Of a DNA stretch of 39,545 nt, positions 22,590-38,320 are shown piece after piece. The translations under genes and the position numbers were made by a program. Source of the DNA: a virus (Duplodnaviria; Heunggongvirae; Uroviricota; Caudoviricetes); the IMG/VR virus record IMGVR_UViG_2913152634_000006; one strand, written 5' to 3'. Position 1 is the stretch's first letter, and each line of letters starts with the position of its first letter. The notes beneath the pieces are model-generated. The model searched no databases, was not told the origin of the DNA, and saw only the letters and a list, made by a program, of their open reading frames with translations.

Positions 22590-24749
22590 ATGAGTACCAC
22601 AACACGAAAATTTAAAACCGTTATCACCGATACAGGTGCAAAAAAATTAGCTCAGGCAGCCGCGCCAGATGGTAAGCCTGTCCGCCTGACTCATATGGCC
22701 GTGGGCGACGGTGGCGGCACGTTGCCCACACCAGACAGTAAGCAGACCCGTCTGGTGCATGAGGTGTGGCGACACACTGTTAATCGCGTCATCCTGGACG
22801 CAACACATCAGAACCGCATTATTGCGGAGCTGGTTATACCTCCTGAAACGGGCGGATTCTGGATCCGGGAAATTGGTGTATTTGATGAGCACGGCGATTT
22901 AATCGCGGTGGGCAATACTGCCGAAAGTTACAAGCCAACCGTTGCCGAGGGGTCCGGACGTGCACAAACATTTCGCACCATTCTGACCGTATCCAGCACT
23001 GCCAGCGTGGCGCTTACCGTGGATAACACCATGGTGATGGCCACAGTGGATTACGTGGATGACAAACTGAAAGAGCATGAACAGTCACGACGTCACCCGG
23101 ATGCCTCGCTGACCGCAAAAGGCTTTGTTCAACTCAGTAGCGCCACTAACAGCGATTCTGAAACGCTGGCCGCAACGCCGAAAGCGGTTAAGGCCGCGTA
23201 TGACCTGGCTAACGGAAAATATACCGCTCAGGACGCCACGACGGCACGAAAAGGGATAGTCCAGCTCAGCAGTGCAACCAACAGCACGTCTGAAACGCTG
23301 GCAGCGACACCAAAAGCGGTTAAGGCGGTAATGGATGAAACGAACAAGAAAGCCCCATTAAACAGCCCGGCACTGACCGGAACGCCAACAACACCAACTG
23401 CACAACAGGGAACGAATAATACCCAAATCGCAAGCACGGCTTTCGTTATGACCGCGATTGCCGCACTTGTAGACTCTTCACCTGACGCACTGAACACGCT
23501 GAACGAGCTGGCGGCGGCGCTGGGCAACGACCCGAATTTTGCGACCACCATGACTAACGCGCTTGCGGGTAAGCAACCGAAAGATGCCACCCTGACGGCG
23601 CTGGCCGGGCTTGCTACTGCGGCAGACAGGTTTCCGTATTTTACGGGGAATGATGTTGCCAGTCTGGCAACCCTAACAGAAGTCGGGCGGGATATTCTTG
23701 CGAAATCGACCGTTGCCGCTGTTATCGAATACCTCGGTTTACAAGAAACGGTAAATCAGGCTTCTGGCGCATTACAGAAAAACCAGAACGGCGCAGATAT
23801 TCCCGATAAAAAACTATTCCTGCGTAATATCGGCACAACAAATTCAACAACAATGTCTTTTAGTGGTGGTGCTGGATGGTTCAAACTGGCAACTGTAACA
23901 ATGCCACAAGCCAGTTCCGTGGTTTACATAAACCTGATTGGTGGCGCAGGGTATAACGTTGGCTCCCCGCAGCAAGCAGGCATCTCTGAGCTGGTTCTGC
24001 GTGCAGGAAATGGAAATCCAAAAGGTATTACTGGTGCATTATGGCGACGGACCTCGGTTGGATTTACTAATTTTGCATGGGTGAATACATCCGGTGATAC
24101 CTATGACATTTATGTAGAAATAGGTAATTACGCCACAGGTGTTAATATCCAGTGGGATTATACAAAGGATGCAACTGTACAAATTCATACATCACCAACT
24201 TATACAGCGAATAAACCAACAGGCCTGACAGATGGAACTGTATATGTAATTTACAGTTCGCACATTAAACCGACTGCTGCTGAGGTTGGGGCGTTGTCAT
24301 TATCTGGCGGTCAATTGAATGGTGCATTGGGTATCGGAACATCCAGTGCTCTTGGCGGTAACTCGATTGTTTTGGGTGATAATGACACGGGATTTAAACA
24401 AAATGGCGACGGGTATCTGGATGTTTATGCTAATAACGTCCATGTTATGCGCTTTGTCTCCGGCGGCATTCAAAGTAATAAAACCATAAATATTACAGGG
24501 CGTGTTAACCCCTCGGATTACGGTAACTTTGATTCCCGCTATGTGAAAGATGTTCGACTTGGTTCACAGCAATATTATGGCGTGAACAACTGGCAAACAT
24601 GGAATTTCCAGTGCCCGTCAGGTCATGTATTGACTGGTATTAATGTTCAGGATACAGGGTCCAATTCTGCCGATAATATAGCGGGCGTTTATTACAGACC
24701 CGTTCAAAAGTATATAAATGGCACCTGGTATAATGTAGCGAGCGTTTAA
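22590..24749 (+). CDS. H: Tail fibre protein H (constant N-terminal part plus currently expressed variable C-terminal part)
   Basis: 719 aa; tail-fibre repeat motifs ([19 protein letters not shown] twice); C-terminal [11 protein letters not shown] shared with the inverted Hv' cassette; gix-like site inside the gene at codons about 378-386. Confidence 0.85.
23127..23330 (+). repeat. Tandem duplication of a tail-fibre collar repeat (two roughly 72-bp copies, period about 132 bp) within H
   Basis: Copy 1 at 23127-23198 and copy 2 at 23259-23330, encoding [22 protein letters not shown]. Confidence 0.5.
23722..23747. promoter_or_regulatory. gix/cix-like recombination site, left (inside H)
   Basis: ttatcgaatacctcggtttacaagaa; 23/26 identical to the reverse complement of the right site and close to the recalled Mu gix sequence; central dinucleotide TC at 23734-23735. 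Confidence 0.6.
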
Positions 24750-24750
24750 T

Positions 24751-25275
24751 ATGATGCACTTAAAGAACATAAAAGCGGGTAACGCTAAAACACTGGAACA
24801 GTATGAGTTAACAAAGAAACACGGAGTTATCTGGCTTTACTCTGAGGACGGAAAAAACTGGTATGAGGAAGTGAAAAACTTTCAGCCAGACACCATAAAG
24901 ATTGTTTACGATGAAAATAATATTATTGTCGCCATCACCAAAGATGCCTCCACGCTTAACCCTGAAGGTTTTAGCGTAGTTGAGGTTCCCGATATAACAA
25001 CCAATCGTCGGGCCGATGATTCCGGTAAGTGGATGTTTAAGGACGGAGCTGTGGTTAAACGGATTTATACAGCTGACGAACAACAACAGGCCGAATCACA
25101 AAAGGCCGCGTTACTTTCCGAAGCAGAAAGCGTTATTCAGCCACTGGAGCGCGCTGTCAGGCTGAATATGGCGACGGATGAGGAACGCGCACGACTGGAA
25201 TCATGGGAACGCTACAGTGTTCTGGTCAGCCGTGTGGATACGGCAAATCCTGAATGGCCACAAAAGCCTGAATAA
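24751..25275 (+). CDS. G: Tail fibre assembly chaperone G
   Basis: 174 aa, starts 2 nt after the H stop; paralogous to the inverted G' (shared MMHLKNI...GKNWYEE...[22 protein letters not shown]). Confidence 0.8.
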
Positions 25276-25282
25276 AAATTAA

Positions 25283-25298
25283 GGCCCGATAGCGGGCC
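25283..25298. terminator. Short GC hairpin (GGCCCG-atag-CGGGCC) between convergent G and G'
   Basis: Perfect 6-bp stem read directly; bidirectional position between convergent genes; weak flanking U-tracts. Confidence 0.4.
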
Positions 25299-25303
25299 TT
25301 GTC

Positions 25304-25837
25304 TCATTCTGGTTGTTCGGGAAACGTTACTGGCAGGCTGGAGGTGTCTGTAGATTCGACCTTCTGCGCATAGAGCATCCACTCGGTTAATTTTTGTTTA
25401 TTCTCGTCGGAAATGATGCCCAGCCGTAGCTGTGAGTCCCATAGCTGGGTTTTATCCCTGACAAGTTGCACCAGGCTTTGCTTTTCATTCTCTGCCTGCT
25501 GCCTCTGTTCCTCTTCGGTATAAGTTCGCTTTATCACTACGCCATCTTTGAACATCCATTTACCCGAAATATCAGCCCGGCGATTTGCTGTAATATCAGG
25601 AACCTCAACGACGCTTGCGCCTTCCGGATTAATTGCTGAAACATCCTTTTCAATACAAATAATAACGCCGTTGTAGTCATAGACCATTTTCAACGTATCA
25701 GTCTGGAAATTCTTTTGTTCCTCATACCAGTTTTTTCCATCCTCTGTATAAAGCCATTTGATGTTAAATTGTTTCGTTAGCTGGTATTGCTCTTTTGTTT
25801 TAGGGTTGCCAGCTGTAATATTTTTTAAGTGCATCAT
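25304..25837 (-). CDS. Alternative tail fibre assembly chaperone G'
   Basis: 177 aa, paralogue of G on the opposite strand inside the invertible segment. Confidence 0.8.
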   Translation of the reverse strand: MMHLKNITAGNPKTKEQYQLTKQFNIKWLYTEDGKNWYEEQKNFQTDTLKMVYDYNGVIICIEKDVSAINPEGASVVEVPDITANRRADISGKWMFKDGVVIKRTYTEEEQRQQAENEKQSLVQLVRDKTQLWDSQLRLGIISDENKQKLTEWMLYAQKVESTDTSSLPVTFPEQPE

Positions 25838-25839
25838 AA

Positions 25840-26796
25840 TTAAATACTCCCCGCGTTATACCACGTTCCATTAATGCAATACTGAATTGGCCTTGCCTGA
25901 GTTGTATCAATTAATTCATCACGGTTTCCGTTAACTGAACCAGTAACGACATAACCTGACCTGTCAGACCAGCCGGGACCATTCCATGTCTGAACAGATG
26001 ACAGACCGCCCAGGCGAATACCTGTAATAAACCTTGAGTTACATTCTGCCTGCGTATATGCACCAACATCCCCCGCAGAGGGTTTGCGGGTTGTGGTGTA
26101 AAACTCTGACCAGTTAGCTTCAAAGCCATAACCATCACGCGCTGAACGATAAAAGATGCCGCCGTTCTTATAATTCACGCGGAACTGTACAGCAGGGCAA
26201 CTCCCCGCATTCATATTGAAGTGGAGGATTAATGTCGATGCACCACTGATATCTGCATCATAAACACCGCTATTCCAGTTCCAGCCAACAGCTTTATCAT
26301 TTGCGACCCTGCTTCCTGTTTGCCCTAAAGCAAATGCAGGCTGCTGGTTTTTCGTGTTGTAGTCTCGTCGCCAGCCAGGAGAATAAGCATCACCATGATT
26401 AATATAAGTGAATTGAGCGTTAGTAATTCCGCCACCGCTGGACGTGCTCGGCGTGGTAACGCGTATAGTCATTGCGCCGCGGGTGCCAATAACTTCCACC
26501 ACAGCACCTGCAAGACAAATATTTCCGCAACCTGTATCTGTAATTACCTTATTATTTGCATAAGCCCATGAGCCTTTGCACATCCAGTAAGGATGGTTAA
26601 ATGCCCCCTGACTCTCCAGCCACGAAATGAATTGTGCGGTTGTCCAGGCCTGACTATCGCCACCAATATTCAGCCATGAGCTATATGCGCGGCAGGCCCC
26701 AATATTTTTGGTGAAGGTATCTTTTCCCGGAATATCTGCGCCGTTCTGGTTTTTCTGTAATGCGCCAGAAGCCTGATTTACCGTTTCCTGTAAACC
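25840..26796 (-). CDS. Alternative tail-fibre C-terminal cassette Hv' (promoterless and start-less; expressed only after inversion fuses it to H)
   Basis: Open frame from the crossover in the right gix site to the stop at 25840; the frame is closed by TAA immediately outside the site; C-terminus IQYCINGTWYNAGSI parallels the H C-terminus; the ORF-track Met start (26583) is internal. Confidence 0.65.
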   Translation of the reverse strand, partial: GLQETVNQASGALQKNQNGADIPGKDTFTKNIGACRAYSSWLNIGGDSQAWTTAQFISWLESQGAFNHPYWMCKGSWAYANNKVITDTGCGNICLAGAVVEVIGTRGAMTIRVTTPSTSSGGGITNAQFTYINHGDAYSPGWRRDYNTKNQQPAFALGQTGSRVANDKAVGWNWNSGVYDADISGASTLILHFNMNAGSCPAVQFRVNYKNGGIFYRSARDGYGFEANWSEFYTTTRKPSAGDVGAYTQAECNSRFITGIRLGGLSSVQTWNGPGWSDRSGYVVTGSVNGNRDELIDTTQARPIQYCINGTWYNAGSI

Positions 26797-26810
26797 GAGG
26801 TTTTAGATAA
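26785..26810. promoter_or_regulatory. gix/cix-like recombination site, right (inverted relative to the left site)
   Basis: ttcctgtaaaccgaggttttagataa; its reverse complement ttatctaaaacctcggtttacaggaa is close to the recalled gix sequence. Confidence 0.6.
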
Positions 26811-26864
26811 TGGCCGTTTCCGGCCTGCATGGCATGATTTGCGCTTTTGGACGGGAGATTCAGC

Positions 26865-27452
26865 GTGCTGATTGGCTATGTAAGGGTATCAACAAATGAC
26901 CAGAATACAGACCTGCAACGAAACGCTCTTGTTTGTGCAGGATGTGAACAAATATTTGAAGATAAATTAAGCGGGACAAAGACAGACCGACCGGGATTAA
27001 GACGCGCTTTAAAGCGCCTTCAAAAAGGTGACACGCTGGTTGTCTGGAAACTGGATCGCCTCGGGCGAAGCATGAAACATCTGATTTCTCTCGTCGGGGA
27101 ACTACGGGAGCGAGGAATTAATTTTCGCAGTCTGACCGACAGCATAGATACATCTTCTCCAATGGGGCGTTTTTTCTTCCACGTGATGGGTGCCCTGGCT
27201 GAAATGGAACGTGAATTAATTGTTGAACGTACACTGGCCGGACTGGCGGCAGCACGCGCACGGGGGCGCACAGGCGGACGTCGACCGAAGCTGACAAAAG
27301 AACAGCATGAGCAAATAGCAAGGCTGATCAAAAACGGGCACGACAGAAAACAACTGGCAATAATTTACGGCATTGGTATATCGACGATTTATCGTTACCA
27401 CCCCGCAGGAGAATCAATCGGAACAATAGAGAAGAGTCAGGAAACAAAATAA
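26865..27452 (+). CDS. Serine-recombinase DNA invertase (Gin/Hin/Cin/Pin family)
   Basis: From GTG 26865 (GGGAG SD 7 nt upstream): MLIGYVRVSTNDQNTDLQRNALVCAGCEQIFEDKLSG... is near-identical over the first ~140 aa to recalled Mu Gin, including the catalytic Ser in YVRVSTNDQ; C-terminal HTH. ORF-track ATG 26847 is the alternative start. Confidence 0.9.
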   Translation: MLIGYVRVSTNDQNTDLQRNALVCAGCEQIFEDKLSGTKTDRPGLRRALKRLQKGDTLVVWKLDRLGRSMKHLISLVGELRERGINFRSLTDSIDTSSPMGRFFFHVMGALAEMERELIVERTLAGLAAARARGRTGGRRPKLTKEQHEQIARLIKNGHDRKQLAIIYGIGISTIYRYHPAGESIGTIEKSQETK

Positions 27453-27487: not shown

Positions 27488-27982
27488 TCAGAACAGCCCT
27501 TTAACTGAACTGGCCGCGCTGTTAAGAGATGATGTCACCTTATCTTTGAAGCCGGACAGCATATCGCTGAATGATGAGGATTGCAGGCGCTCCCGCAAAT
27601 CCTCATCACAGCGTTCAAGGGTCAGTGAAAATTCTATCTTTTTCGCCTTACCGTAGCGATCAAACTCGGAACGGGTCGTATTCGTTTCAGTCAGCACATA
27701 CATGCCGTAAATCTGCCCGACACCATCAATCAGAGGCCAGGGGCGTCCTGTATATGCCTGCGTGGTCAGCAACGAAAGCGACACTTCGCCACCTGTAATT
27801 TCAGGATAAAGCACGCCGGAAAGCACAATGCGATCATCACCTGCACCTATATACTGCCAGCTTGCTGAACGGTTAACGCGTTCATTTTTCACATGCCGCC
27901 AGCTTTTGTTTTGCTGTAACTGCTGATGCGGCAGTGTGCGCAGCTCAAAAACAAACATGCCGTAGATCATCATCATGACCAT
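27488..27982 (-). CDS. U: Tail protein U
   Basis: 164 aa, immediately downstream of the tape measure on the same strand; SWRH...GAGDD..I.LSG...RPWPL.DG...EFDRYG pattern as recalled for P2 U. Confidence 0.8.
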   Translation of the reverse strand: MVMMMIYGMFVFELRTLPHQQLQQNKSWRHVKNERVNRSASWQYIGAGDDRIVLSGVLYPEITGGEVSLSLLTTQAYTGRPWPLIDGVGQIYGMYVLTETNTTRSEFDRYGKAKKIEFSLTLERCDEDLRERLQSSSFSDMLSGFKDKVTSSLNSAASSVKGLF

Positions 27983-27988
27983 GACTCC

Positions 27989-30805
27989 TCAATCTTTATC
28001 GTAAAAACTGCCACGTCCGGCACGGGCGCGCCGTTCCATCTCTGCCCTGACCATTTCACCGACCAGTTTCGCCAGTTCGCGGGGATTCTGCGTAACAACG
28101 TTATGCAGATGAACATGAATTTCACCGCCAAATCTGGAGACAGCAGGCTCCCGATTACGGGAAGCTGCAGGAACTGATGCCACTGGCGATCGTATGGCCT
28201 CCGCCACCGGGCGGGAGCTGACCGCAACAACAGGGACCAGCGCCGGAGGCAGCGGAGCCGGGACTACGGGTGTGATATTAATTGCGGGGGCAGGCTTACT
28301 GACCTGCGCAATCTTCCGCTCCTGCCACTCCCCACGAACAGCAAGTGCGCGGGGCAGGTTCTTAAAGACAATATCGCCAGGGCCAATGCGTTTTTTCGTC
28401 TCATCAACCAGCTTACCTGTGTTATCAGCAATTTTGCTGAGTCTGCGTAGCGTCCCGGTATTGCTGTCTGTGAGCGGTTTGTTGTCTTTGGGTTTATCAC
28501 CTCCGGTGCCATTGCCATTTTCCACAGGCTTCGGCGGATTGATTTTCGCAAGGTCCCCCTGAAGCAAGGCAACCTTGTCCTGAAGAATGGCCGCACGCTG
28601 TGCGTCTTCGATTTTCTTGCGCGCCTTTTCCGCTTCATCCGGAAGGACGCCAAGTTTTTCAAGTATCCACGCCAGCGTATCCAGTAGCATTTTTGCAGGT
28701 GTCAGAACAAGCTGTAGCGCACCGCCAAGAACGTTACCGAATATCTCGCCAGCACTGGTACATTTATCCAGCGTTTCCTTGCTGGACTCCATCGGTGACA
28801 GCAGCGATTTAAACCAGTTAAACACCTGGCTGATCCCGCTTCCGATTGCGTCAAAAACAGGACCAAACCGTTCAAAGGTTTCGCGCAACGGGGTCAGCCT
28901 TTCCATAATCCCGCTGAACACCCCGGCAAAAAATGCCCTGATGGGATCCCAGTATTTCCAGATAAGAACGGCAGCTCCGGCAAGCGCAGCCACGATAAGA
29001 CCAACCGGACTGATCAGCGCCCCGATAGCGCCTCCCAGTAAAGAAACGGAACCCGTCACCATTCCCCATAGTGCTGGCAGGACCCTGACAGCATTCATTG
29101 ATCCGGTCAGGAGAGAAAAACCAAGACGCAGTTTTGCCAGCGGACCAGCAAGCACACCAATAGCCAGCGACAACGAGCCAACCGTTGCAGTCATTGCCAG
29201 CAACGCACCGCCTGCTATCAGTAGCTGGCGCGTCAGTGCCGGATGGGCCTGCGCCAGCGCCGTCACCCTTGATACCACCCGCGCGAGCCACTGCGTGACA
29301 GAACGCAGCGGACCGTCAATCAGATCTGCAATGCGGATGCGCAACCCTTCCCATGCACTGCCGAGTGATTTCAGATCGCCGTCAAGGTTGTTGGCCATAA
29401 CCTTTGCTGTGCGTTCAGCCTCACCGCGCGCGCCTTCAAGTTCTTTTCTCAGTTTGGGTAAGGAACCGTCACCCGCTGCATCAACGAGCGCCATAAACGA
29501 TGTGAAAGCCTCTTCTCCGGCAATGTCCTTAAAGAACGATACCCGGTCAACTTCCCCGTATTTGCGGGTGGCTTTATAAAGGTCGGCCAGCACATCCTCC
29601 ATCGGGCGCATTTTGCCCCCGGCATCCGAGACGGACACGCCCAGCTCTTTCAGAGCTTCTGCCGCCGCCTTTGGCGGTGATGCCAGACGAGCCAGGCTGG
29701 CACGCATTGCCGTCCCGGCATCACTCCCTCTGATGCCCATATTCGCCAGCACGCCAGCCATCGCTGCGGCCTGCTCCAGCGATATTCCCAGCTTACCCGC
29801 CACCGGACCTGCATATTTCATGGTTTCGCCCAGTGCGCGAAGGTCAGTGTTGGTACGGGTAAACGCTGCGGTGAGTGTGTCACCAACCCGGTCCATCTGG
29901 TCAGCAGAAAGGCCGAACTGCGTCAGGATATTTGAGCCAATATCTGCCGTCTCGCCGAGATCCATACCGCCAGCCGTTGCCATGCTCAGCACGCCGGGAA
30001 GCGCAGCCTGAATGGCCTGCGGAGTGAAGCCAGCCATTGCAAGAAATGCCTGTCCACTGGCGGCATCGCCTGCGGTGAACTGCGTTTCAGAGCCAAGTTT
30101 TAACGCCTGCTCACGCAGCGCCTTAAACTGCGGGCTGTTCTGGTCGATTCGCGTCAGTGCCTGAACGCGGGACATCTCTTTGCCGAACCCGATCGCAGGC
30201 TGCAAAAAACGCCCGGCAGCATAGCCGCCCGCCGCTGCCGCACCAATTGCCAGCGCACCACCTGTTTTCAGTTTTCCCGCTGTTTCCTGCGCGCGCGAAT
30301 ACCGCTCACGCGCCCGCGTTACACGCGCAAGCGCCTGCCGTTCGCGTTCAAGCTGGTTGTTGTACTGTTCGGTGCGTCTGATGGCCTGCTGGATGGTGTT
30401 ATCGCTGCCTGTCAGGGAAATGCCGTGGCGTTTCAGCTCTCCGCCAAGCTCCCGCATTTTCTGAATTTCCCGTGTGCGCGATTCATTCAGGCGTTCAAGC
30501 CGGGTGCTTAACTGCTGCATCAGCTTTTGTTGTTTTTCGCTGAGCACTGTACCCGTGCGTTGTAACTGATTAAGGGCGTTAAGCTGGCGTCGTGCTTTCA
30601 CGATGCCAGCATCCGCTTTACTGACAGCGTCACGGGCGCGCTCAAATGAACGCGCCTGACGCTCGAGATTTTTGATCGCCCCCTGCGTTCGCTGGATGGA
30701 GTCACCAAACTGCCCCATCAGGCGGCGGGCGTTTTCGGCAGGCCGGGTCAGCCTGTCAACGGCGCTGAAAGCGACCCGGATATCAAGAGTCTTCATTATC
30801 TGCAT
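27989..30805 (-). CDS. T: Tail tape measure protein T
   Basis: 938 aa; coiled-coil N-terminal part, Gly/Ala-rich hydrophobic central region; follows E/E'. Confidence 0.85.
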   Translation of the reverse strand: MQIMKTLDIRVAFSAVDRLTRPAENARRLMGQFGDSIQRTQGAIKNLERQARSFERARDAVSKADAGIVKARRQLNALNQLQRTGTVLSEKQQKLMQQLSTRLERLNESRTREIQKMRELGGELKRHGISLTGSDNTIQQAIRRTEQYNNQLERERQALARVTRARERYSRAQETAGKLKTGGALAIGAAAAGGYAAGRFLQPAIGFGKEMSRVQALTRIDQNSPQFKALREQALKLGSETQFTAGDAASGQAFLAMAGFTPQAIQAALPGVLSMATAGGMDLGETADIGSNILTQFGLSADQMDRVGDTLTAAFTRTNTDLRALGETMKYAGPVAGKLGISLEQAAAMAGVLANMGIRGSDAGTAMRASLARLASPPKAAAEALKELGVSVSDAGGKMRPMEDVLADLYKATRKYGEVDRVSFFKDIAGEEAFTSFMALVDAAGDGSLPKLRKELEGARGEAERTAKVMANNLDGDLKSLGSAWEGLRIRIADLIDGPLRSVTQWLARVVSRVTALAQAHPALTRQLLIAGGALLAMTATVGSLSLAIGVLAGPLAKLRLGFSLLTGSMNAVRVLPALWGMVTGSVSLLGGAIGALISPVGLIVAALAGAAVLIWKYWDPIRAFFAGVFSGIMERLTPLRETFERFGPVFDAIGSGISQVFNWFKSLLSPMESSKETLDKCTSAGEIFGNVLGGALQLVLTPAKMLLDTLAWILEKLGVLPDEAEKARKKIEDAQRAAILQDKVALLQGDLAKINPPKPVENGNGTGGDKPKDNKPLTDSNTGTLRRLSKIADNTGKLVDETKKRIGPGDIVFKNLPRALAVRGEWQERKIAQVSKPAPAINITPVVPAPLPPALVPVVAVSSRPVAEAIRSPVASVPAASRNREPAVSRFGGEIHVHLHNVVTQNPRELAKLVGEMVRAEMERRARAGRGSFYDKD

Positions 30806-31321
30806 TCCCGCTGCGAAGTGCCGCCCGCTCGCGCCAGCTAACCACTTCGCCGGGCGTCATCATGAAGATTTCGGCGGGCGACCAGTTAAAAATGGCGGCA
30901 ATATCCGCCACCAGATCTTCGATGTGCTCAAAGCACACCAGGGTGATTACGCTGCCGTCTCCTGCACGCTCTTCGCGCCAGAGTCTGGCTCGCTCATAAA
31001 ATTTACAGCCACTGCGCACAACTGAATAAAATCGCGTGACGACATTTTTTTAATCATCACTTCATCCAGTCGTGGCGAGGTCACGCGAGGCAACAGCGTA
31101 AACATGGTATCCGCTTTCAGATTCAGCACATCAGACAGCGACAGACCACGCAGGGATCCAGCCTGCTCAATAGCCCCGGTGATCTCCACATACGTGATTT
31201 TTTCGCCACCACGCTCAATTGGTCGGGTCAGTTTTACGCCACGTTCGACAGCCATATCCTCACCTGCCGTCACATCATCCGCCACGGTGTTATTCCGGGT
31301 TTCAGTATTGATGTCTTTCAT
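30783..31321 (-). CDS. Tail assembly chaperone E+E' (predicted -1 programmed frameshift product)
   Basis: The -1 frame (ORF-track 30783..31019) stays open across the E stop; its only upstream in-frame stop lies just 5' of an A7 run (minus strand; T7 at 31045-31051 on plus), so entry must be at or after the run; arrangement equals P2 E/E'. Confidence 0.55.
30947..31321 (-). CDS. E: Tail assembly chaperone E
   Basis: 124 aa, ATG 31321 with AAGGAG 8 nt upstream; position between tail tube FII and tape measure T. Confidence 0.75.
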   Translation of the reverse strand: MKDINTETRNNTVADDVTAGEDMAVERGVKLTRPIERGGEKITYVEITGAIEQAGSLRGLSLSDVLNLKADTMFTLLPRVTSPRLDEVMIKKMSSRDFIQLCAVAVNFMSEPDSGAKSVQETAA

Positions 31322-31376
31322 CAGTTGTCTCCTTTTCAGTCAGAGGCGACGCACTGCGCCGCCTGCATATTACTTA

Positions 31377-31889
31377 TCAGCCAAGCCCAAGCGCGGAACG
31401 GATACGGTCAGGCACAATGTCCTTGCCGTCCTTCCGGTAGATGTGGTTCAACAGGTCGATTTCCCACAGCGGGCGATCGTTAACGCTCAGCTTGTAGTAG
31501 GTGTTTTTGACAGCGTAAGTGTGTGATGTGGCTTCGCCCTGTTTGGCTTCCCCCATATCAATTTCCGTCACACGCCCGCGCATCTCGATTTCATACAGAT
31601 CGCTTTCTGCATCGGTGTAGTATTCACCCGCAAAACGCAGCAGCGTGCCGTCAATCGTGCCGCCATATTTAAGGAACAGCGCACGAACAGCTCCCCCCAT
31701 GACAAAACTCGCATCAAGCGCGGAGTCGTCCAGACCGAGATCAATACTTACCGCCCCCATCATGCCACCACCACGATAGCTGTCGGTTTTGCGCGTCAGT
31801 TTGGGCGGCGTGACGGATGTCACTTTACCCACTTCGTTTTCACCATCCACAAACAACGTAAAAAAGCGAAGATGTTTTGGTACAGCCAT
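31377..31889 (-). CDS. FII: Tail tube protein FII
   Basis: 170 aa (P2 FII is about 172 aa), directly downstream of the sheath gene with a 1-nt overlap. Confidence 0.85.
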   Translation of the reverse strand: MAVPKHLRFFTLFVDGENEVGKVTSVTPPKLTRKTDSYRGGGMMGAVSIDLGLDDSALDASFVMGGAVRALFLKYGGTIDGTLLRFAGEYYTDAESDLYEIEMRGRVTEIDMGEAKQGEATSHTYAVKNTYYKLSVNDRPLWEIDLLNHIYRKDGKDIVPDRIRSALGLG

Positions 31890-33073
31890 CAGGCACCTCC
31901 CAGCACCGCAAATGCGGGACCAAAGAATTCATCAGTAAACGTCTGGTAAAGCTCCATGTCTTCCAGCGGGGGAACAGGCGTATATTTGTAGCGAATACGC
32001 ACACGTCCCTGACGTAAATTCGTGGTGCCGTTATCCACCACGTCATACCAGCACTCCGCACCAATCAGTTTCCCGGCAGTAACCAGCGAATCCAGTTTTG
32101 CCCTGATGGCGCTGATAACATCCTTCACGTTCGCAGGTGTCAGTGGACTGTCGATGGTTTCAAACTGCGCTTCCGCAATTGAATCAGCCAGCACCTGTGC
32201 GGTTCGGGTATACACCTCAAAGATGTAGGCGTTCGTTTCCGGTGTGCGGTTGCCCCAGAAGCGGAACCCGTTGCGACGAATAATGGTCGTGATTTCTTTG
32301 TTGTTGAGGCTGTTGGCATCGCTGTCTTCGGCCTGCAACGACCAGAACACATGCCTGGACATTCCCAGCACATTTTTAACCGGAACGTTGGACAGCGATT
32401 TGTGCCAGCCCTGCTCATGGTCAATGTACGCACGAAGGCCGCACGCATAAGCAGGCGCGGGGAACGTTTCGTTTTTGCCACTTTTCGGGTTGTAGGCGAT
32501 GAAGTCCGGCCATAAGAGCATCACCTCACGTTCGTTGAATTTCTGGCGGTAGGTAATCGCCTCAGCCATCGTGTTACAGCCGTGACATGAGGCATACACA
32601 AACGCGCGCAGTTTACCTGCAATCACGCACAGGGATTTTGTTACAGCCTCCGTGTCCAGCTCCGGCGCGGCCAGAATACGCGGACGGTATCCGATGCTTT
32701 CATCCTGCTCTGCAACAAGCAGCGCATACATCCCCGTATAGCTGCCGTCATCCTCAGAACCACCGATAACCAGTTGATCCTGCGTCTTTCCGTCTTCTTC
32801 TTTGTGTTCAGCCACGCGAACGACGATCACCTTTGTGCTCACCTGGTCTGCGATGGCCTTAAGCGCACGATAAAGCGTCCCCGTTGTCCCGCATTTTCCC
32901 AGCACGTCATTGACGCGGGTCAGCAGTGTGGGCTTATTCAGCGGGAACAGCTTCGCGTCCGCATCATCCGCCGTTGCCACGATACCGATAACGCTGGAAT
33001 CAACATCGTTAATCGCTGTTACCAGGTCGGTATTTTCCGTAACACGGGCACCATGAAAACGAGTTTCACTCAT
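31889..33073 (-). CDS. FI: Contractile tail sheath protein FI
   Basis: 394 aa (P2 FI about 396 aa); good SD (AAGGGG) upstream; first gene of the FI-FII-E-T-U block. Confidence 0.9.
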   Translation of the reverse strand: MSETRFHGARVTENTDLVTAINDVDSSVIGIVATADDADAKLFPLNKPTLLTRVNDVLGKCGTTGTLYRALKAIADQVSTKVIVVRVAEHKEEDGKTQDQLVIGGSEDDGSYTGMYALLVAEQDESIGYRPRILAAPELDTEAVTKSLCVIAGKLRAFVYASCHGCNTMAEAITYRQKFNEREVMLLWPDFIAYNPKSGKNETFPAPAYACGLRAYIDHEQGWHKSLSNVPVKNVLGMSRHVFWSLQAEDSDANSLNNKEITTIIRRNGFRFWGNRTPETNAYIFEVYTRTAQVLADSIAEAQFETIDSPLTPANVKDVISAIRAKLDSLVTAGKLIGAECWYDVVDNGTTNLRQGRVRIRYKYTPVPPLEDMELYQTFTDEFFGPAFAVLGGA

Positions 33074-33230
33074 AGCTTCAGCCCCTTGTATCCGTTAAAT
33101 GATTCGGCAACAATCATCACCCACCACGCGCGTAATCTCACCCCTGCGCCGTTCTTCCGACCCAGCGACAACAAAAAGCAGTAACCCCCTCCGCACGCAC
33201 ATGCGACCATGCCGCACAGGGAGGGAACAG

Positions 33231-34340
33231 ATGACCGACACCACCATGCAATTGCTCAGTCAGAGCACAGACCCCGTGAAAATGCCGGATTTTGATATTC
33301 TCGCGGAGGGTAAAACGCTGTCAGGCGTGGCAGAGCGCCTGATGAGCCTGTCACTGACCGACAACCGGGGATTTGAGGCGGACCAGCTCACCATCACGCT
33401 GGATGATGCGGATGGTCAGTTGCAGCTACCGCCACGGGGCGCGCGCCTGACGGTTCTCATTGGCTGGAAAGGAGAACCGCTGACAGAAAAAGGCACTTAC
33501 ATTGTTGATGAAATCGCTCACGAAGGACCGCCGGACAGGCTGACTGTTTCAGCCAGAAGCGCAGATTTTCGGGATGAATTTAACGTTAAACGTGAGGTGT
33601 CCTGGCATGATGTGACCGTTGAGCGTGTGGTATCCGCCATCGCTCATCGGTATGGTCTGAAACCGCAAATCAGCGAAATGCTGATGGATATCGAAATCGA
33701 CCACGCCGACCAGACCGAAGAAAGCGACATGTCCTTCCTTACGCGCATGGCGGAAATGCTGGGCGCAATCACCACGGTAAAAAGCGGTAATCTGTTATTC
33801 ATCATGCCCGGCGGTGGCGTGAACGCACAGGGCCAGCCGTTGCCATCGTTTGCCATCACACGCAGCAGCGGCGATCGCCATCAGTTCCGCATTGCTGACC
33901 GCGAGGCGTATACAGGGGTACGCGCTTACTGGCTTGATCTTAATTACGGGAAAAAGAAAAAAGTCAGCGTGAAACGCCGCAAACCGCCAAAACCCAAAAA
34001 GGAGAAAAGCAGCAGCCGTGAAGGTGATTATATGGAAGGCGCAGAAGGCAATGTGTTTGTGTTACGCAAGACTTATCAGAACGAGCAGGCAGCAAGACGC
34101 GCAGCGGCGGCAAAGTGGCAGCAGCTACAACGCGGAGCCGCATCATTTTCCATCACGCTGGCGCGTGGACGTGCAGAACTCTACCCCGAAATGCATGGCA
34201 CGGTAACAGGATTTAAAAGCGAGATTGATAATCAGGACTGGATTATTGCGAAAGCCGAGCACACCATTGATAACAGTGGCTTTACCACGCAGCTTGAGCT
34301 TGAAGCAAAAATTCCGGAATGGATCGTAGAAACAGAATGA
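33231..34340 (+). CDS. D: Tail protein D (late control gene D family)
   Basis: Start at ATG 33231 after GGGAGGG; 369 aa; size and composition as P2 D; here divergent from FI rather than downstream of U. Confidence 0.8.
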   Translation: MTDTTMQLLSQSTDPVKMPDFDILAEGKTLSGVAERLMSLSLTDNRGFEADQLTITLDDADGQLQLPPRGARLTVLIGWKGEPLTEKGTYIVDEIAHEGPPDRLTVSARSADFRDEFNVKREVSWHDVTVERVVSAIAHRYGLKPQISEMLMDIEIDHADQTEESDMSFLTRMAEMLGAITTVKSGNLLFIMPGGGVNAQGQPLPSFAITRSSGDRHQFRIADREAYTGVRAYWLDLNYGKKKKVSVKRRKPPKPKKEKSSSREGDYMEGAEGNVFVLRKTYQNEQAARRAAAAKWQQLQRGAASFSITLARGRAELYPEMHGTVTGFKSEIDNQDWIIAKAEHTIDNSGFTTQLELEAKIPEWIVETE

Positions 34341-34462: not shown

Positions 34463-35248
34463 TCAATCACCTATGTGATTACGTTCTATATATCTTACAA
34501 TCTTCTCTAAAGATTCAAATCCCCACCTCTGCATAGCATGTGGGAATTCTGTATATTCATAATCTTCTATGGTGAGATCCCATGTACTTTTCTTGAATTC
34601 ACACTGATATAATCGCACAGTCTTGTTTAAAACCAACCCTTCTAACACACTGCTTTTCTTAATGATTTTGTCAATGTCTTTATTGTTAATCCCAATGTAG
34701 ATAGCTGTTACCGAACTTAAATCAGTTATCTTGTCAATTAAAATATTTTCTTGCTTTTGTAATAGCCCCACTCGCTTTATTATTCTAACTTCTTCTTCAT
34801 ATTTCCAATGCAATGATTTAGTAAGCAATAATTTACTAATTACATCAGCGCTATAAATGTTTTCTTGACTGATTTTTAGTTTACTTTTTATTCGACTCTC
34901 TAAATAATTAATGTCACCTTTCTGTGCCGTAATTAGGCATTTTTCTTCATCATCAAACCCTGCCCTTTCTGTGTCAATTGCTACAACAAACCCCTGATGT
35001 TTATCAGCATAATGTGACCACATCAGTACATTGAGAGGATTTTTAGAAAGGCATAAGCAGGCAACATTTTGATTGATCTCCCCCCTCATAGCTAATGGTT
35101 CAAGCGATTCACCATCTAATGAAAGTTCATAGCCATAGCTTTCAAAAGGATCATTAAACTCACTATACGGAGTGAATTTTATAGAGATGTAACCATCTTT
35201 AAAAAATCGTTCCAATGATGTCTTATCTATATATTTATACAGAATCAT
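34463..35248 (-). CDS. AT-rich accessory (moron) gene, DUF2971-like protein of unknown function
   Basis: Start placed at ATG giving MILYKYID...; LYKY N-terminus, FNDPFE and MWSHYADKHQGFVV motifs resemble DUF2971 as I recall it; opposite strand to flanking D and ogr; strongly AT-rich relative to neighbours. Confidence 0.55.
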   Translation of the reverse strand: MILYKYIDKTSLERFFKDGYISIKFTPYSEFNDPFESYGYELSLDGESLEPLAMRGEINQNVACLCLSKNPLNVLMWSHYADKHQGFVVAIDTERAGFDDEEKCLITAQKGDINYLESRIKSKLKISQENIYSADVISKLLLTKSLHWKYEEEVRIIKRVGLLQKQENILIDKITDLSSVTAIYIGINNKDIDKIIKKSSVLEGLVLNKTVRLYQCEFKKSTWDLTIEDYEYTEFPHAMQRWGFESLEKIVRYIERNHIGD

Positions 35249-35443
35249 AATATATTCAGAATTAATTATAGGTGTTATCAGTATACAGTACTTCAACAAG
35301 TAGATGTAAAGATCCCATTTAAACGTTCCTCCTCAATACGCGGATTAAACAAATTAAAGCATCTTACTCAAAATGGACCATCAGTTGGATTTAGAGCCAA
35401 CACAACCTAGAATAGCGGCAGCACCACGTTAAGGGAGGTCGCT

Positions 35444-35844: not shown

Positions 35845-36933
35845 TTACCTTCGCAAGTAGAAGGTTAGCGCCTCTCCTCTCAGGAGACAAGCGTTTGTAT
35901 GGGTCCACCACATATTGCAATTTTTATTCTCTTTTAAAATATATTCCACGGGCGTCATTAGTGCGAGCGCCTTGTGGGGTCTTTTGCTGTTATACAGCAC
36001 CAGATATTCCGCCAGCTTCTGGTTAAATAGCGCCAGATCTTCAAAGAGTAAAATCTCATTAAATTCAATAAACTGCTCTCTTAACGTCCGGTTAAAACGT
36101 TCACAGATAGCGTTCATTTTTGGCGTGTAGGGATAGGTCCAGAGGTGTTTGATAGCGGCTTCCTGCAGCGTTTTGTCGAAGTTTCCCAGGAACTCTTTTC
36201 CGTTATCTGTGATTATCTGGCTGATACCGACCGGGAACAACCGGGCTGCGCGGCTGAAGAAGTGATTGACGATATCACTGTTGAGTGACGGCACAGCCAG
36301 TGCCAGCGCGTAATTGCTGCATTCGTCGATCATGGTGATGACATAGCGACGCAGTTCGCCCATTCTGAGCTCAATGGCGTCCATCCCAATGAGCTCACCT
36401 GTCTTTACCGGGCGGTAGTGCTTTGGCCTGCGGGGTTTGGCAGACCGCTTTTTGACAAGCAGTGCCTTCCCCCGCGATCCCAGACGCACAGGTATCATCC
36501 GCATTTTATCATGTGCGGCAGCGATCATTCTGCCGATGGTGGAAACACTCGGACAGGCCAGATAGCGCTGTTCGCACCAGGGCTTCAGGCGAACAAAAAT
36601 CTGCTCTTTACCGAGGTTCGGCAGCTCTGTCCTGAGGCGTCGAATCTCTTTCAGCACATCGGGATGCCAGTGTTTTTTTCGTCGCACCAGAGGTGCCTTA
36701 CTGTGCGGGATTAGCCCCTCAGGTCCTTCCTTGTTCAGTAACTGACGCCACCAGTAAAGCGTGCGGCAGGACACGCCAAAGGCTTCAGAAGCTGCAGAAA
36801 TACCGTGTTTATCCCAGAAGTGCAGAGCCTTCATTCTCATTGTTGCTATATCAGCCATCACTGAAAGCCTCAACGCATAATCGGCCGTTTGGTAGTACTT
36901 AGGATAGCCAACCATCAGATGCTGCATTTGCAT
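35845..36933 (-). CDS. IS-element DDE transposase (rve integrase-core type, single ORF)
   Basis: 362 aa; N-terminal HTH-like segment (MKALHFWDKHGIS...CRTLYWWRQ), DDE-type core with ITDNGKEF; the real start is probably an internal Met (MADIATMRMK...); IS family and ends not determined. Confidence 0.7.
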   Translation of the reverse strand: MQMQHLMVGYPKYYQTADYALRLSVMADIATMRMKALHFWDKHGISAASEAFGVSCRTLYWWRQLLNKEGPEGLIPHSKAPLVRRKKHWHPDVLKEIRRLRTELPNLGKEQIFVRLKPWCEQRYLACPSVSTIGRMIAAAHDKMRMIPVRLGSRGKALLVKKRSAKPRRPKHYRPVKTGELIGMDAIELRMGELRRYVITMIDECSNYALALAVPSLNSDIVNHFFSRAARLFPVGISQIITDNGKEFLGNFDKTLQEAAIKHLWTYPYTPKMNAICERFNRTLREQFIEFNEILLFEDLALFNQKLAEYLVLYNSKRPHKALALMTPVEYILKENKNCNMWWTHTNACLLRGEALTFYLRR

Positions 36934-37386: not shown

Positions 37387-37584
37387 ATGACGCAAAATGT
37401 ACGATGCAAAAATTGCAACAAACTACTTGCCCGCGCCTCATTTCACTACATTGAAATAAAATGTCCGCGCTGCAAAACACTTAACCAGATAACGAGAGCC
37501 ATCGAGCACCCCACACACATGAGGAGTTATGACCGTGGGGATCGCAATCCAGCACCAACCAGCACATACACCGGAACACACTAA
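37387..37584 (+). CDS. Com-like zinc-finger translational regulator
   Basis: MTQNVRCKNCNKLLARASFHYIEIKCPRCKTLNQI resembles recalled Mu Com (MKSIRCKNCNKLLF...HIEIRCPRCK); ATG 37387 sits 7 nt after AGAGGTG; 3' end overlaps the downstream methyltransferase by 56 nt. Confidence 0.7.
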   Translation: MTQNVRCKNCNKLLARASFHYIEIKCPRCKTLNQITRAIEHPTHMRSYDRGDRNPAPTSTYTGTH

Positions 37585-38320
37585 GGTTTATCAGACTGAC
37601 AATGCCACGCTCTGTCGTGGGAATGCGCTGGAAATATTGCCGCTGATTGAGCCAGAAAGCATTGATGCCTTAATCACTGACCCGCCTTACAGTTCGGGTG
37701 CGACACACAAGGCCGGACGCACCAACCAGGGCAGCCATGCAAAATATCTGAACGGCGAGAACCTTCACCGCTTTGATGGGTTCGCGGGTGAAAACATGGA
37801 CGCCCGTTCGTGGGCTTACTGGACACAATTATGGATGGCACAGGCACACCGCGCAGTCAGGCCGGGCGGTTATGCCCTGGTATTTACTGACTGGCGACAA
37901 CTACCAGCTTTAACCGATGCGTTTCAGGCCAGTGGCTTTACATGGCGCGGCATCATTGCGTGGAACAAAGGGAGGGGGTCACGAACACCACATACCGGGT
38001 ATTTCCGGCATCAGTGCGAATACATCGTCTGGGGCAGCAAAGGCCATTTAGATAAATCGCCTTCGGGACCGTTCGACGGCTGCATGACGTTCCCGGTTAT
38101 CTCGTCAAAGAAAATGCACCCGACCGGAAAACCAGAAGAACTAATGGCGGAACTGGTCAGGACTGTGAATAGTGGCGGAACAGTCCTTGATCCTTTTATG
38201 GGGTCAGGGACAACGGGTGTGGCTGCACTGAAAGCAGGACGCAAATTTATTGGTATAGAAACCAGTGATCATTATTTTGATGTAGCAACACAACGGCTCA
38301 AAACGGCGATCGAACCATAA
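37529..38320 (+). CDS. DNA methyltransferase, beta-class N6-adenine/N4-cytosine type (DPPY before FxGxG)
   Basis: 263 aa; catalytic ALITDPPYSS near the N-terminus and SAM-binding VLDPFMGSGTTGVAA near the C-terminus (circularly permuted beta-class order); SD GAGGAG 2 nt upstream of the ATG; start overlaps the com-like gene. Confidence 0.85.
   Translation: MTVGIAIQHQPAHTPEHTKVYQTDNATLCRGNALEILPLIEPESIDALITDPPYSSGATHKAGRTNQGSHAKYLNGENLHRFDGFAGENMDARSWAYWTQLWMAQAHRAVRPGGYALVFTDWRQLPALTDAFQASGFTWRGIIAWNKGRGSRTPHTGYFRHQCEYIVWGSKGHLDKSPSGPFDGCMTFPVISSKKMHPTGKPEELMAELVRTVNSGGTVLDPFMGSGTTGVAALKAGRKFIGIETSDHYFDVATQRLKTAIEP

Follow-up and report, generated by a model that had tools for sequence, protein, structure and literature searches.

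The window (the whole stretch of 39,545 nt of DNA that was analysed) is, judged by its sequence, a P88/PhiSM-like (Xuanwuvirus) P2-family prophage of E. coli. The tail genes are located on the minus strand and, based on the ORF list and Pfam matches, follow the order FI-FII-E-E'-T-U. They comprise the sheath gene FI (33073-31889), the tail tube gene FII (31377-31889; Pfam Phage_tube, E=2e-45) immediately upstream of E, the tail assembly chaperone gene E (30947-31321; 124 aa, stop codon TAA at 30949-30947), the tape measure gene T (27989-30805; Pfam PhageMin_Tail, E=3.6e-58; PGAP start at 30796) and gene U (27982-27488, taken from the ORF list). E and an overlapping ORF in the -1 frame thereby lie between the tube gene and the tape measure gene, as in P2. 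The E protein matched PHROG 103 'tail protein' (E=1e-36) and, in a tblastn search, gene E of P2 (34.8% identity over residues 26-114, E=4e-7); a match to Pfam Phage_TAC_7 was weak and fell short of the gathering score (20.6 as against 25 bits). The -1 ORF matched Pfam Phage_P2_GpE (46.4 bits, gathering score 23) and PHROG 1756 (E=4.5e-41). No NCBIfam model matched E or either of the fusions described below (heptamer or A7), and a PDB sequence search returned no relative, the best match (E=0.3) being spurious. Identity over the E/E' region was 99.9% with prophages of E. coli strains, O26 among them, 99.4% with Citrobacter phage PhiSM, 99.3% with Xuanwuvirus P884B11 and ∼86% with phage P88, and the region was matched in 1369 of 5426 complete E. 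coli genomes (about one quarter).

Several features around the tail genes were also recorded. Gene D (Phage_GPD, 33099-34340, plus strand) is transcribed opposite to FI-FII-E-T-U (27488-33073, minus strand), and P2's single FETUD operon is thus split in this genus; the true start of the 413-aa gene D ORF is probably a later Met than the one listed. Just after gene D, a 278-aa DUF2971 protein (E=6e-11) is encoded at 34463-35299 on the minus strand; this spot is often the site of cargo or anti-phage genes in P2-like phages. A probable invertible tail-fibre segment (22590-27452) contains a tail fibre gene (22590-24749, plus strand), two Caudo_TAP fibre-assembly genes in opposite orientations (24751-25275, plus; 25304-25837, minus), an oppositely oriented ORF for an alternative fibre C-terminus with a gp37_C domain (25840-26583, minus) and a Hin/Gin-type serine invertase gene (26847-27452, plus; Resolvase, E=2e-50). 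Near the right end of the window, a transposase/integrase-core ORF (rve, IS481-like HTH; 35845-36933, minus strand) and an N6/N4 DNA methylase gene (37529-38320, plus strand) were observed, which may represent the prophage edge or an insertion.

Within E, a homopolymeric A7 run is located at 31045-31051 of the minus strand (T7 on the plus strand). It consists of the codons AAA AAA (K91 K92) and the A of ATG (M93), the E frame reading ATT AAA AAA ATG (I90 K91 K92 M93). A TAA codon of the -1 frame (31052-31050) overlaps the start of the run and forms the upstream limit of the stretch that permits E+E'. After this codon the -1 frame is open until the TGA at 30785-30783, and a 179-aa fusion would result from a -1 shift anywhere between ∼31049 and 30950. 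An earlier, sequence-only reading of this DNA had pointed to the A7 run, had described E' as open only downstream of it and had proposed a fusion containing ...MIKKNVVTRFYSVVRSGCKFYERARL... by slippage on its AAA-AAA codons. The run was found where it had been placed, the description of the frame is true in this window, and the peptide is the right translation for a shift at A7. For this proposal to hold, tRNA-Lys, a known shifty tRNA in E. coli, would have to slip from AAA to AAA at 31051-31046, and the 179-aa product ...MIKK|NVVTRFYSVVRSGCKFYERARL... would be the functional E+E'. The shifty character of tRNA-Lys is in its favor, as is the -1 frame, which is open from the run in the window and in most close relatives. 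However, the register of the run is T_AAA_AAA and not the canonical X_XXY_YYZ, and A7 runs occur in the window at chance frequency. With 14 runs found and 13.2 expected from shuffled sequences, no enrichment was observed, and A7 as a statistical anomaly was ruled out. From the run to the heptamer described next, the -1 frame is open over only 16 codons, a length that, by estimate, would lack a stop codon by chance in about half of cases.

In the same overlap, 47 bases downstream of A7, a canonical in-frame heptamer A_AAT_TTT (31004-30998, minus strand), overlooked in the first reading, was identified. It begins with the last base of V106 and continues through N107 and F108, and it is proposed here as the -1 site on the basis of sequence, the P2 alignment and conservation. 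A canonical in-frame heptamer is expected by chance at ∼0.1 per 33-codon stretch, so the case rests on the positional conservation of the heptamer and not on its presence.

The position of the site was compared with that of P2. In the P2 record (NC_001895), a -1 frameshift is annotated at GGT TTT TTG (G83 F84 L85), together with E and E+E'. The C-terminal halves of the two E proteins aligned without gaps (LPRMTAPMLTEQEVAALELPDLVALAGKVVGFLSP in P2 and LPRVTSPRLDEVMIKKMSSRDFIQLCAVAVNFMSE in the window), and the P2 site fell on N107-F108-M109 of the window (AAT TTT ATG). K91-K92 fell on two alanines (A-A) of P2, where P2 has no slippery sequence and its -1 frame is closed. The earlier comparison with the E/E' arrangement of P2 thus agrees with the gene order, the homology of E and the Phage_P2_GpE domain of the -1 ORF, but the proposed slippage on the AAA-AAA codons is not supported, given that the P2 site aligns with N107-F108-M109 and a conserved heptamer is found there instead. 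A fusion at the A7 run would also replace the conserved C-terminal segment DFIQLCAVAVNF of E (aligned to DLVALAGKVVGF of P2). The weak Phage_TAC_7 match is kept in the heptamer fusion, where it extends through residue 106, and it disappears in the A7 fusion.

Conservation of the junction was analyzed in 299 loci, corresponding to 195 distinct junctions, which were obtained from annotated phages, one genome scan and four IMG/VR scans, the genome-contig scan contributing 2 loci only. A canonical in-frame X_XXY_YYZ heptamer was found at the aligned position in 195 of 195 distinct junctions (299 loci), in the form of TTTTTTG, CCCTTTC or AAATTTT. TTTTTTG was carried by P2, KSP20-like and 3LV2017-like sequences (67 distinct junctions, 70 contigs), CCCTTTC by Reipivirus (49 distinct junctions, 61 contigs), AAATTTT only by the window lineage (39 distinct junctions, 82 contigs) and AAATTTT overlapping TTTTTTG by the P88 lineage (37 distinct junctions, 83 contigs). 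Another 3 distinct junctions (3 contigs) showed other combinations including TTTTTTG, among them phiT5282H and a P88-lineage sequence with an A8 run (L007). Within the permitted stretch, the aligned heptamer was essentially the sole canonical one; the codons CCT TTT TTG and GTA AAT TTT were invariant, and the flanking codons varied synonymously. Many relatives have a -1 frame that becomes open only 7-10 nt ahead of the heptamer, so that the shift could take place nowhere else in them. The -1-frame proteins of five genera aligned without gaps from the residue after the heptamer. As a separate observation, the contig of L007 (NZ_JBQPOM010000071.1), whose junction is of the P88 type and enterobacterial, is labelled Vagococcus sp. 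WN89Y, a Gram-positive organism; this label probably reflects contamination or a mixed assembly.

The same comparison across homologues, which the sequence-only reading had suggested as a check, did not favor the A run. The run was limited to the window and P88 lineages (Xuanwuvirus/Gemsvirus-type), and none was present at the aligned position in Reipivirus, Novemvirus, KSP20-like, 3LV2017-like or P2 homologues. In 37 of the 38 distinct P88-lineage sequences, the -1 frame after A7 reads AAT GGC ATC CCG TGA, with the stop codon 4 codons after the run. The same TGA is created by a synonymous CGC to CGT change of E in two sequences that are 99% identical to the window (L021 and L024, 3 contigs). 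A shift at A7 therefore cannot give E+E' in any of these sequences, which include that of P88 itself, a functional phage that was induced from E. coli K88 and can lyse E. coli strains (PMC5285337, PMC6456863). Most likely, A7 amounts to two AAA lysine codons with an ATG after them and is incidental.

Substitution patterns were subsequently examined to either side of the heptamer. Between the window and P88, 11 nucleotide differences were found in codons 93-108 (A7 to heptamer), 9 of them at third positions of the E frame, and these changed 2 of 16 amino acids in E as against 10 of 16 in the -1 frame. In codons 109-124 (heptamer to E stop), 12 nucleotide differences changed 8 of 16 amino acids in E and 4 of 16 in the -1 frame, and beyond the E stop a further 12 differences changed 9 of 51 and 3 of 51, respectively. 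Similar patterns were seen within the window lineage: among 6 variants in codons 93-108, 5 were synonymous in E, 1 was synonymous in the -1 frame and 1 was a -1-frame nonsense change. Of the 21 variants located past the E stop, 15 were synonymous in the -1 frame. According to these patterns, it is at the heptamer, and not at A7, that constraint changes over from the E to the -1 frame, with the 16 codons from A7 to that point being constrained in the E frame only. Conservation of the downstream frame, which had been named as a check on the A7 proposal, was thus confirmed from the heptamer onward, but the stretch from A7 to the heptamer was not conserved. Within the dual-coding region, a block GG(C/A)GGAGACGG (window 30955-30962, minus strand; aligned in L091-L095) was nearly invariant in five genera. 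It lies ∼40-50 nt after the heptamer and is translated as A-E-T when read in E and as G-D-G in the -1 frame; no covarying pairing partner of this block was seen.

A shift at the heptamer would give a predicted E+E' of 179 aa, consisting of residues 1-108 of E and 71 aa of E' (30783-30998, minus strand; YERARLWREERAGDGS...NADNEDS, ending at the TGA at 30785-30783), the part that carries the Phage_P2_GpE and PHROG 1756 matches. The predicted junction is ...QLCAVAVNF|YERARLWREERAGDGS... (AVAVNF|YERARLW), and the predicted product ends 14 nt inside gene T, as counted from the PGAP start at 30796. Tryptic digestion is predicted to yield the junction peptide DFIQLCAVAVNFYER for a shift at the heptamer, and NVVTR and FYSVVR for a shift at A7.

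In a 99.9% identical E. coli prophage, PGAP/RefSeq annotates at this place a 51-aa 'GpE family phage tail protein' with a GTG start at 30938 (30783-30938, minus strand). E' could accordingly be read as an independent 51-aa protein that is initiated at this GTG and needs no frameshift, and the separate 156-nt 'GpE family phage tail protein' genes of RefSeq and GenBank records speak for this reading. Amino acids of the -1 frame are, however, conserved upstream of the GTG back to the heptamer in five genera, in the form of the block ER(G/A/T)GDG, which argues against E' initiating independently. No start codon is conserved there in Reipivirus, KSP20-like and 3LV2017-like sequences, and the nearest GGAG, as read from the sequence, precedes the GTG by ∼20 nt, a distance too large for a Shine-Dalgarno sequence. 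In P2, moreover, E' was described as having no ribosome-binding site and was designated a -1 extension of E, according to the account of Christie et al. (2002, J Bacteriol 184:6522) given in PMC3931495 and PMC3091744 and in keeping with the record NC_001895. Independent initiation was considered highly improbable, and the 51-aa GpE ORF is most likely an annotation artefact of an unrecognised frameshift.

The mechanics of slippage at the candidate sites were compared with published measurements. In E. coli reporters, cognate re-pairing in the A site (UUU to UUU) was the main determinant of efficiency, and the active tetramers followed the order A_AA.G >> U_UU.C > U_UU.U > C_CC.U = C_CC.C > A_AA.A, with U_UUG marginally above background (Sharma et al. 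2014, PMC4066793). Heptamers of the form R_RR.U_UU.Y were frameshift-prone in E. coli despite their mixture of purines and pyrimidines (PMC4066793), and A_AAU_UUU belongs to this class. For the A7 run (U_AAA_AAA), the A-site tetramer A_AA.A is among the six active ones, which supports slippage there, but it is the weakest of the active set (PMC4066793), and P-site re-pairing would need a first-position mismatch. When the 56 nt after A7 were folded, no structure was found (-8.4 kcal/mol, z=+1.46). The loss of the P2-type TTTTTTG in this lineage, described below, would in principle allow another site to take over; nevertheless, A7 as the source of the functional E+E' was judged very unlikely.

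Single-sequence folding predicted an irregular hairpin downstream of the heptamer (30948-30996, minus strand; core 30989-30954). For the window lineage, the 56 nt after the heptamer folded at -19 kcal/mol (z=-1.57), and 13 of 200 shuffles folded as well, so that the fold is not significant. Single-sequence folds at the junctions gave z values from -1.57 to +1.17. The hairpin was not conserved in other lineages, and RNAalifold found no conserved downstream structure in 12 diverse junctions (-2.5 kcal/mol, no covariation), in agreement with the published absence of hairpins at P2-like sites, for which none were reported (PMC3091744). As a modelled structure, the hairpin is a possible lineage-specific stimulator. 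Visual inspection of the 17 nt preceding the heptamer revealed no obvious Shine-Dalgarno-like stimulator.

Slippage might also be distributed over more than one site, either at both A7 and the heptamer or by a single-tRNA slip on T_TTT at F108 or F98, with several E+E' isoforms as the outcome. The -1 frame of the window is open across A7, GAT TTT A (31033-31027) and A_AAT_TTT, and U_UU.U tetramers show activity in E. coli if a stimulator accompanies them (PMC4066793). Tetramers without a stimulator, however, are barely above background (PMC4066793), the F98 tetramer is absent in P88 (GAC TTT), and the heptamer position alone is conserved. This possibility was given only a slim chance, although a minor product from A7 may be conceivable, since A7 is followed by an open -1 frame in the window.

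The E/E' overlap is very probably the known -1 frameshift of P2-type tail assembly chaperones, with the slip at A_AAT_TTT (31004-30998). E and the overlapping E' frame would form a P2-type chaperone pair. Most ribosomes would translate E (124 aa) to its TAA, and a minority would move one base back on the heptamer, with the P-site tRNA-Asn re-pairing from AAU to AAA and the A-site tRNA-Phe from UUU to UUU. After the slip, the -1 frame would be read as TAT GAG CGA..., giving the 179-aa E+E'. The two proteins, made at a fixed ratio, may then chaperone the tape-measure protein and recruit tube subunits, in analogy with gpE/gpE+E' of P2 and gpG/gpGT of lambda. What the sequences show is the gene arrangement, the homology, the placement and conservation of the heptamer and the change of coding constraint at it; that ribosomes do slip there, how efficiently they do so and that the products act as chaperones is inferred.

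The window shares with P2 the order FII, E and E' with E' overlapping the start of T, a homologous E, the Phage_P2_GpE domain and the -1 direction. In the alignment the slip sites coincide close to the 3' end of E, apart from an offset of one codon. The conservation pattern of the -1 frame suggests that E' may lack a start of its own, as was described for P2. The two differ in the heptamer (A_AAT_TTT here, T_TTT_TTG in P2), in the length of E (124 aa as against 91 aa; both the N-terminus and the part following the site are longer here) and in the part of E' after the shift (71 aa as against 57 aa, with an extra block of ∼11 aa of the WREERAGDGS type); the opposite orientation of FI-U to D noted above is a further difference. 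P88 has the same genus-level gene set, ∼86% nucleotide identity over E/E', the codons GTA AAT TTT and the A7 run. It differs in that AAT TTT TTG is kept, so that both A_AAT_TTT and T_TTT_TTG are present, and in the -1-frame TGA between A7 and the heptamer. The gpG/gpGT pair of lambda is likewise made up of two proteins with a common N-terminus, produced at a fixed ratio by a -1 shift and encoded between the major tail protein and tape-measure genes, neither protein being found in the virion. The lambda heptamer, however, is G_GGA_AAG, and the window phage has a contractile tail. We know of no sequence similarity between E/E' and lambda G/T. The tail assembly chaperone frameshift has been described as general to tailed phages (Levin et al. 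1993; Xu, Hendrix and Duda 2004, as cited in PMC5009743).

The specific P2 heptamer TTTTTTG (T6G/T7G) is absent from the window, which reads AAATTTTATG, with ATG in place of the TTG of P88, P2 and most relatives. By this TTG to ATG change, T_TTT_TTG is gone and only the overlapping A_AAT_TTT is left in the window lineage. CCCTTTC of Reipivirus is another deviation within the family, and T7C has been reported at the site in Xanthomonas prophages (PMC3931495). With accepted members deviating in this way, TTTTTTG is typical of the P2-type family and not strictly defining. PhiSM (L003) carries the same AAATTTTATG allele as the window and is a functional phage that forms plaques and lysogenises (PMC6456863); the loss of TTTTTTG is thus compatible with viability. 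With this allele, efficiency may be sustained by the UUU codon in the A site or by the lineage-specific hairpin, or it may be lower. By electron microscopy, PhiSM was reported to have a long, siphovirus-like tail of the non-contractile type (PMC6456863), although the deposited PhiSM genome contains genes of P2 type for the sheath, the tube, E/E', T, U and D.

A turnover of the signal at a fixed position in the PhiSM/window lineage might be considered, in which U_UUU_UUG was destroyed by the Leu to Met change and A_AAU_UUU is now used, perhaps with the help of the lineage-specific hairpin (-19 kcal/mol) and perhaps with a minor second isoform from A7. We regard this scenario as rather unlikely; if true, it would be a natural case of a recoding site that moved by one codon without loss of function.

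No frameshift mark was present in RefSeq/PGAP or in the records of this lineage that were examined. In the P88 record, the E' ORF is labelled 'tail fiber protein', and in the PhiSM record E' is missing and the sheath gene appears as 'late control gene D protein'. The E/E' frameshift described here is an ordinary and already understood feature, and the sole new detail is that this lineage lost TTTTTTG and keeps A_AAT_TTT. It represents a further heptamer variant of a well-established and conserved phage recoding event and leaves existing concepts as they are. Its main value lies in annotation, as marking the -1 shift at A_AAT_TTT / T_TTT_TTG gives the correct 179-aa E+E'.
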